64,000 nt of DNA from Flavobacteriales bacterium (GCA_018609055.1 JABAYJ010000009.1:17343-81342); one strand, 5' to 3'. Positions 27,652-28,608 are shown, counted from the first letter of the stretch. Notes: a model not told the origin generated them from the letters alone. Numbers and translations are program-made.

Positions 27652-28608
27652 TTATATTGTAAATAAAGTGAATAAATATATTGTTGGTCTTGAACTACCA
27701 TCACTTGGGTTTTCAGCAGGCGCGGTATGATTTGCATCCTGAACATATACTCTTACAAATAGCAAAGTACCTGTTGGATATGCACTAGCATCAAAATCAA
27801 ATTTATGTGTGAATGAAGTTGAGTTTCCGGAAAAATCATTTGCAGTAAATCCTCCAGAAACTGACATACTTGAAGCAGTTACAGCATCAAAATCAAACAT
27901 TGCAGTATCAATTTTTATTTCATTTACTGTCATGCTTGTTGAAGAGGTTGCATCATCATCTACAGAAAACCATAAATCAATATTTGTTCTTGGGATTAGT
28001 ATTGGAAGTATTCCTGCTCCAGATGCTCTTGAGTATGGAGATGAAGTTGAGTTATTTGCATAAGCATTAAAACCTGTAACTATTGGATTTGGATTCCCAA
28101 CAACAGGAGCGTTACCATACATGTCTTTGGCTCCATTATTAATCCAGTCTTTTACATTTTTTATGTGTTTAGTTTTATTTGAAGCCCATTCGCTTCCAGA
28201 TACAGCCGGCATTATTCCAGAAGTATTAGGTAAAGCGACTAAAAGTCTTTCGTGAAGTAATGATAATGCAGCATCACCTGGCTTTACTCTGTAAACAAAG
28301 TCTCCAGCAGGGTTATTTGTTAATACATTATGATACACAGAATTGTTGTAAGAACTAGTAATAGTTCTGAAATCTGGTTCAAAAGCACCATCATGACAAC
28401 CAGAGTTTGCACAAGTAGGTTTAAAAATGGTAGCGTGTAAATAACCAAAATTTGAGGAAGGCAAAGACGCTAAAGTCGGTTCTTCATAAAGAATAGGAGT
28501 AGTGTAATTGTCATAAGGGTTTTCAATTTCGTTTTTCTTACAACCTTGAGCCATAAGTAACAAAATCACAATCCCAGAAATAACTATTGAAAATCTTTTA
28601 TTAGTCAT
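27652..28608 (-). CDS. Hypothetical lipoprotein with PSCyt1-like cytochrome c domain
   Basis: Lipobox AQGC; CANSGCH, VKPGDAALSLL, IMP, WINNGA. Confidence 0.65.
   Translation of the reverse strand: MTNKRFSIVISGIVILLLMAQGCKKNEIENPYDNYTTPILYEEPTLASLPSSNFGYLHATIFKPTCANSGCHDGAFEPDFRTITSSYNNSVYHNVLTNNPAGDFVYRVKPGDAALSLLHERLLVALPNTSGIMPAVSGSEWASNKTKHIKNVKDWINNGAKDMYGNAPVVGNPNPIVTGFNAYANNSTSSPYSRASGAGILPILIPRTNIDLWFSVDDDATSSTSMTVNEIKIDTAMFDFDAVTASSMSVSGGFTANDFSGNSTSFTHKFDFDASAYPTGTLLFVRVYVQDANHTAPAENPSDGSSRPTIYLFTLFTI

Follow-up and report, generated by a model that had tools for sequence, protein, structure and literature searches.

A gene on the minus strand of a 64,000-nucleotide stretch of DNA from a Flavobacteriales bacterium (the window) raises the question of whether a protein whose putative haem motif reads CX4CH, with two more residues between the cysteines than in CXXCH, is a c-type cytochrome. 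We analyzed this gene, gene D (27652..28608, minus), an open reading frame (ORF) encoding a 318-aa lipoprotein, together with its homologues, its neighbours and the haem-handling genes of its genome. Our preferred answer, to which we give a probability of about 0.6, is that gene D encodes a haem-binding electron carrier.

The gene D lipoprotein and its family

The original prediction described a lipoprotein containing CANSGCH, VKPGDAALSLL, GIMP and WINNGA, and every one of these elements is present in the ORF. Reading of the sequence gave the order C66-A-N-S-G-C71-H72 (28393..28413, minus), V108KPGDAALSLL118 (28255..28287, minus), G131-I-M133-P134 (28207..28218, minus) and W155INNGA160 (28129..28146, minus). 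The first is the predicted site of haem attachment with the proximal histidine, the second corresponds to the 'vvPGdpe.S.L' element of the PSCyt1 domain, the third holds the predicted distal methionine ligand, and the last lies in the C-terminal helix of the domain. Residues 1-23 (28540..28608, minus) read as an N-terminal signal peptide followed by the lipobox ..LLMAQG-C23. With a signal peptide, a lipobox and a Cys23 that was invariant among 39 aligned homologues, gene D has the features that define a bacterial lipoprotein, and this part of the original prediction stands. The K-(D/E)2 sequence, the surface-export signal of Bacteroidota lipoproteins (PMC5080379), was present in 31 of 117 family members and was inconsistent across the family.

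We then assessed conservation in the 39-homologue alignment, in which identity ranged down to 38%. Besides C23, the invariant residues were C66, S69, G70, C71, H72, D73, G74, F76 and P78 in and after the motif, P110 and S116 in the VKPGDAALSLL element, M133 and P134, and W155, I156 and G159. The four residues on which haem binding would depend, Cys66, Cys71, His72 and Met133, are therefore all conserved. In the larger set of 120 listed homologues, C[AS][NVT]SGCHDG and G.MP were found in every sequence and CXXCH in none; most of these proteins contain three cysteines in total. Since all relatives examined have retained the stretched motif, the CX4CH of gene D is probably a working haem site. 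The DG.FEP.F stretch that follows His72, which includes D73, G74, F76 and P78, was also unusually invariant; such conservation is atypical of class I cytochromes and could reflect a different use of the site.

The family is large and unannotated. At least 642 homologues were recovered at E<=0.001 from Flavobacteriales and other Bacteroidia assemblies, every one unnamed or 'hypothetical' and none with a precomputed Pfam domain. Sampling of the class (251 genomes, 152 genera) found family members in 72 genomes and 44 genera, with two paralogues in some of them. Some copies show signs of decay. On contig C4 of the same genome (C4:20329-20532), a 67-aa ORF contains ..IKAVETWINNGAKDIFNNSPSLP.. with no in-frame CX4CH part upstream, and looks like the remnant of a decayed gene D paralogue; in a genome from the sample (G239, C1:3985995-3986879), the second paralogue carries three in-frame stops.

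An AlphaFold2 model of the full-length protein, built from the 39-sequence alignment, had a mean pLDDT of 86.5. The N-terminal part was mainly helical, and a beta-sandwich began at about residue 176, mostly with pLDDT >90. The beta-rich C-terminal domain of the original prediction is borne out by this Ig-like sandwich (residues 176-318; 27655..28083, minus; pLDDT ~93-98), in which D218, D291 and P301 were invariant among the 39 homologues. Foldseek searches with the full-length model returned weak Ig/FN3-type matches only, all at E > 0.007. The lowest pLDDT fell on residues 61-80, around the CX4CH motif. A model of the N-terminal domain alone, without haem, reached a pTM of 0.84 and was likewise weakest at the motif; low confidence confined to the motif loop is as expected with the cofactor missing. 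Foldseek comparison of this haem-less domain model with the PDB found no cytochrome fold and nothing at E < 6.

Relationship of the N-terminal domain to PSCyt1

Direct family searches gave no assignment. Pfam returned no match even at E<=10 for the gene D protein, the isolated domain or 39 family members, so that gene D stays below the gathering score of 22 bits for PSCyt1 (PF07635) without any match at all. NCBIfam likewise gave nothing significant on the protein, its domain or the 39 family members; its faint matches were to a 'PT dipeptide repeat lipoprotein' family and to a family of dihaem cytochromes, in the latter case to its tail. Because these searches gave nothing, we collected genuine PSCyt1 domains as a comparison set. 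PF07635 was above cut-off in 48 of 151 Bacteroidota genomes, the genome of gene D not being among them, and 30 Pfam-passing Bacteroidota domains were fetched. Twenty of these carry CXXCH and ten carry CX4CH, for example CAVSGCHD, CALSGCHD and CAMSGCHD. The view that CX4CH is uncommon is correct in general; within Bacteroidota PSCyt1-type domains it does not hold, as the motif is frequent there (10/30 sampled).

Comparison of the gene D N-terminal profile with these 30 domains by hhalign gave a probability of 97.7% and an E-value of 1.6e-12. In the alignment register, CX4CH lies over CXXCH, GIMP over MP and WINNGAK over WI.QGAK, and VKPGDAALSLL aligns to PGKPDRSAVV and PGDPEASKV of PSCyt1 and FoxE. 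A joint alignment of the gene D family with PSCyt1 placed a clean two-residue insertion between the cysteines. Against full-length PSCyt1-PSCyt2-PSD1 proteins of Pfam-confirmed architecture, the match fell on their PSCyt1 segment, at 84%. The likeness to PSCyt1 that the original prediction had drawn from the order of motifs is thus real homology, with Met-Pro and CX4CH in register. These results show, at the level of sequence profiles, that residues ~45-172 (28093..28476, minus) form a divergent domain that belongs to the superfamily of PSCyt1 / FoxE-type monohaem cytochromes c.

The domain profile was also searched against 1.84 billion representative proteins. It matched 1409 clusters (50% identity) at E<=0.001, 345 at 1e-10 and 156 at 1e-30. 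Among the metagenomic proteins, one of 589 aa (P0327) is built of five PSCyt1-like repeats in tandem, of which four carry CX4CH and the remaining one CXXCH, and from these mixed repeats it follows that the two motifs occupy equivalent sites in one polypeptide. Another of 960 aa (P0318), matched by the gene D family profile at 1.8e-37, has five tandem CXXCH repeats; on reading its sequence, putative repeated CHRD-like modules were seen ahead of them.

Proteins of solved structure were searched in the same way. With the joint profile, FoxE (5MAB) was matched at 9.7e-13; hydrazine synthase alpha (5C2V) followed at 5.9e-7, through its C-terminal haem domain, and cytochromes c555, c6 and c552 were weaker matches. 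The profile of the gene D family by itself gave 89% against FoxE domain 2, aligned from PGD..S to WI..GAK, and 67% against the hydrazine synthase alpha haem domain over its full length. An hmmsearch with this family-only profile against PDB sequences found no cytochrome; a fucosidase match was rejected as spurious, lying in the C-terminal half. The proposal that methionine is a plausible distal ligand gains from the register with FoxE, as the MP-methionines of FoxE are axial haem ligands, each on the haem of the other repeat (PMC10654088).

Precedents for haem on CX4CH are available from other proteins. As the original prediction had stated, cytochrome c3 has such a site: the haem II motif of the Desulfovibrio vulgaris protein (2CTH), checked in the PDB sequences, reads CGTAGCHD. 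Haem 3 of hydrazine dehydrogenase, seen in a solved structure, is bound by what was described as 'a rare CX4CH' (PMC6469936), and CX4CH is among the accepted haem c motifs (PMC11492766). The motif itself is therefore already known, from multihaem proteins. In the present case CX4CH is the obligatory form throughout a large family that carries no annotation, and the domain that holds it is monohaem and class-I-like. Our literature search found no paper on CX4CH in Bacteroidota or in PSCyt1 domains.

Cassette context and predicted haem attachment

Gene D occupies the fourth position in a cassette of five closely spaced genes. This holds for each of the 20 loci fetched, which come from different families; within the window the intergenic gaps of the cassette are 3-24 bases. 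Gene A (30517..31467, minus) encodes a 316-aa helical, DUF4214-like lipoprotein and was syntenic in 19 of the 20 loci, not being found in locus L048. Gene B (30002..30505, minus) encodes a 167-aa DUF4214 lipoprotein (Pfam E 3.9e-5), gene C (28613..29977, minus) a 454-aa protein with a Tat signal that belongs to the alkaline-phosphatase superfamily and may be DUF1501-like, and gene E (27208..27648, minus) a 146-aa lipoprotein with a DGDGD motif; each of these three was syntenic in 20/20. Across loci the sizes are similar, at ~306 aa for A, ~165 for B, ~445 for C and ~150 for E.

Two further genes often follow. Gene F (23122..27198, minus) encodes a 1358-aa CUB/PKD/CHU_C protein of the type-B cargo of the type IX secretion system (T9SS), with CHU_C at 1.3e-17, CUB above the Pfam cut-off and PKD sub-threshold; gene G (22132..23121, minus) belongs to the PorP/SprF family (PF11751 at 5.3e-39). 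Gene F adjoins the cassette after gene E in 13 of the 20 loci and additionally in L005 and L006. In the clade of the window, F (1100-1360 aa) usually comes after the cassette and the PorP/SprF gene is often next; one lineage retains D-E-F only.

The family assignments of the partners differ in firmness. Gene C has an RR motif, and among 32 members matches were obtained to TAT_signal in 12, Phosphodiest in 7 and Sulfatase in 2; by these profile matches, gene C is assigned to the alkaline-phosphatase superfamily. With Pfam DUF1501 (PF07394) there was a weak match in one of the 32 members, and hhalign gave a collinear alignment to DUF1501 at 59% and E 9e-5, which is suggestive of a relationship. 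In one locus (L046; G244:C1, ~9934-11276), gene C, for the Tat protein, is broken up into ORFs of 218 and 232 aa, a sign of decay. Gene A orthologues matched DUF4214, one of them above cut-off, and genes A and B are mutually related at 95% by hhalign. Sub-threshold Pfam hints of DUF1549/DUF1553 were seen in gene A orthologues (E 0.013-0.04); a reading of A and B as a split DUF1549/DUF1553 pair was unsupported, with hhalign values of 7.8% and 3.5% against canonical proteins, and neither a PSCyt2 (DUF1549) nor a PSD1 (DUF1553) domain is supported in these two proteins. No family was detected for gene E; its Y-x-D-G-D-G-D-[IL]-G motif is conserved and could bind calcium.

We also searched the genome for genes of cytochrome c maturation, a check that bears on whether haem could be attached. 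A single PF01578 (Cytochrom_C_asm) gene was above cut-off (contig C5:344809-347562, L001). Its 917-aa product has the WWD region ..GGFWAWDPVEN.. and is closest to CcmF/NrfE haem lyases, with a similarity that lies below the NCBIfam cut-offs; identification as CcsBA was rejected, the nearest NCBIfam models being CcmF/NrfE. CcmE was not found in the genome, and no ResB was above cut-off. In most relatives a second, shorter PF01578 gene lies 1-2 kb from the first, but it is absent from the genome of gene D. The check for Ccm or Ccs genes thus yielded one candidate, seemingly a one-protein cytochrome c synthase of an atypical kind. Canonical CXXCH cytochromes are encoded as well, among them a hexa-motif protein and several dihaem proteins, indicating that cytochrome c maturation operates in this bacterium. 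PF01578 was present in 69 of 71 other genomes with the gene D family, covering 43 of 43 genera; this co-occurrence says little, because nearly all genomes of the class probably have a synthase anyway.

Proposed function of the gene D family and comparison with known systems

In the electron-carrier reading, the gene D protein is exported by the Sec pathway and lipid-anchored. Haem would be attached covalently to Cys66 and Cys71 of CX4CH by the single haem-handling synthase of the genome, with His72 as the predicted proximal and Met133 as the predicted distal ligand. The two extra residues, which give xx[S/A]G before the second cysteine, may form a small bulge like that at haem II of cytochrome c3, and the C-terminal beta-sandwich could act as a docking or binding module. 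The protein may then carry single electrons in a conserved cassette of the cell envelope, whose other members would be two DUF4214-type lipoproteins, a Tat-exported alkaline-phosphatase-superfamily enzyme and a small lipoprotein; in most lineages these are joined by a CUB/CHU_C protein that T9SS would bring to the surface, with PorP/SprF as its partner.

We weighed the electron-carrier reading against other explanations. That the motif arose by chance in a protein unrelated to cytochromes can practically be dismissed: CX4CH does occur in 10 of 4217 raw ORFs of the genome, some of them spurious, but chance is refuted by the invariance in 120 homologues and by the 97.7% profile homology. A descendant that has kept the PSCyt1 fold and lost the haem deserves more attention. 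Here the two cysteines of CX4C would pair in a disulfide, or would make up a metal site with His72 and Asp73, and the protein would be a structural or binding module of the cassette. This would agree with the absence of any significant cytochrome HMM or Foldseek cytochrome fold match for gene D, with the invariant D73, G74, F76 and P78 beside the motif, which are atypical for class I, and with a partner, gene C, in a hydrolase superfamily whose need for electrons is not obvious. A relic would be expected to drift, yet both cysteines, the histidine and the Met-Pro pair are all invariant. The mixture of CX4CH and CXXCH repeats in P0327, the presence of CX4CH in a third of the Pfam-accepted PSCyt1 domains and the haem bound by the near-identical CGTAGCHD of c3 also argue against loss of the cofactor, and we consider a haem-free protein unlikely.

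Haem might instead be bound by a protein that shuttles no electrons. Such a protein could be a sensor, a small-molecule site or a catalyst, for example with a labile methionine, or its methionine could ligate the haem of a partner, as the MP-methionines of FoxE do between repeats (PMC10654088). The hydrazine synthase alpha homologue, which has no Met at the MP position, and a cassette with no other obvious redox protein would both fit. Nothing points to a specific ligand or reaction, however, and His/Met monohaem domains of class I cytochromes overwhelmingly carry electrons. We judge a haem-bound role other than electron transfer quite unlikely, and retain the electron-carrier reading of gene D.

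Other proteins with stretched motifs are encoded elsewhere in the same genome. Outside the window, on contig C8 (297215-299893), a second cytochrome module begins with two small tandem PT-repeat lipoproteins of 121 and 119 aa, with CGTGNTCH (CX5CH) and CNGSYCH (CX4CH) respectively; MPK and W-I-x-x-G occur in both. Next in the module are a dihaem CXXCH cytochrome c of 358 aa and an outer-membrane barrel of the DUF5777 family (Pfam 1.5e-74). That small lipoproteins with stretched motifs are neighbours of a genuine dihaem cytochrome favours the haem reading of gene D. We know of no haem c site with CX5CH. A 116-aa exported protein, also outside the window (C5:426545-426895), contains YCSGTFCHHG (CX4CH), DMP and a W-L-E-E-R-A tail; it is a further small PSCyt1-like protein that escapes all family models. 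On the minus strand of contig C4 (~27748-28563 in plus-strand coordinates; 254721-255537 on the reverse complement), a 271-aa ORF has CGQGGCHGG (CX4CH), a putative haem site, near its N-terminus; the product is a T9SS-sorted 'choice-of-anchor V' / Reeler-like protein (NCBIfam 1.4e-21).

A joint reading of these observations, which we offer tentatively and think rather doubtful as a whole, would be that Bacteroidota contain a large class of natural monohaem c-type cytochromes, so far hidden, in which CX4CH, and possibly CX5CH, is obligatory. The class would have been missed by every CXXCH-based census and would depend for its maturation on one atypical synthase, CcmF-like and working without CcmE. 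The gene D family would be the redox subunit of an undescribed envelope machine, in which a Tat-exported alkaline-phosphatase-superfamily enzyme is coupled to a T9SS-displayed surface protein. If gene D does bind haem, its family would count as a natural CX4CH substrate that is widespread and has a class-I-like His/Met monohaem domain, CXXCH-based counts would underestimate the cytochromes of Bacteroidota, and the synthase of these bacteria would need to tolerate 2, 4 and perhaps even 5 residues between the cysteines.

Among known systems, PSCyt1 (PF07635) shares with gene D the order of elements (a helix, Cys..Cys-His, PG.p..S.L, Met-Pro and W-I-x-x-G-A), with the conserved Met-Pro and the C-terminal W-I-x-x-G-A helix in register. 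PSCyt1 has Cys-x-x-Cys-His, whereas CX4CH is obligatory in the gene D family (120/120). Gene D also has a ~25-residue insertion after the motif (FEPDFRTI.SSYN..V), and it is a lipoprotein fused to a beta-sandwich, whereas PSCyt1 lies N-terminal to PSCyt2(DUF1549)-PSD1(DUF1553). Haem has been shown experimentally on FoxE-type proteins, and we know of no other PSCyt1 domain on which it has been shown. FoxE of Rhodobacter ferrooxidans SW2 (5MAB), the closest solved relative of the joint profile, is a His/Met dihaem c with two CXXCH repeats and swapped Met ligation, whereas gene D has one repeat and CX4CH; FoxE is a soluble periplasmic Fe(II) oxidase candidate, whereas gene D has a lipid anchor and a different operon. 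In hydrazine synthase alpha, CAMCHD stands opposite CANSGCHDG of gene D and AYSRAYNSLL opposite I.SAYNTLV; its haem domain has CXXCH, lacks a Met at the MP position and is part of a large anammox enzyme.

The proteins that supply the precedents for the motif are more distant. Haem II of cytochrome c3 (CGTAGCHD) has the same xx[A/S]-G-C-H-D pattern as CANSGCHD of gene D, but c3 and hydrazine dehydrogenase have unrelated multihaem folds, whereas the gene D domain is monohaem and class-I-like. The haems of cytochrome c3 are bis-His ligated, whereas a His/Met pair is predicted for gene D. At the level of gene organization, the sole likeness to the PSCyt/DUF1501 pairs is a PSCyt1-type domain beside a Tat alkaline-phosphatase-superfamily protein. 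The PSCyt/DUF1501 modules of Planctomycetes, Verrucomicrobia and some Bacteroidota are themselves of unexplained function (PMC5615132). The conserved cassette offers a compact, lipoprotein-based entry to modules of this type, in a phylum with genetically tractable members; if the joint reading is true, the cassette would be the lipoprotein-based counterpart of the PSCyt/DUF1501 modules of Planctomycetes and Verrucomicrobia.
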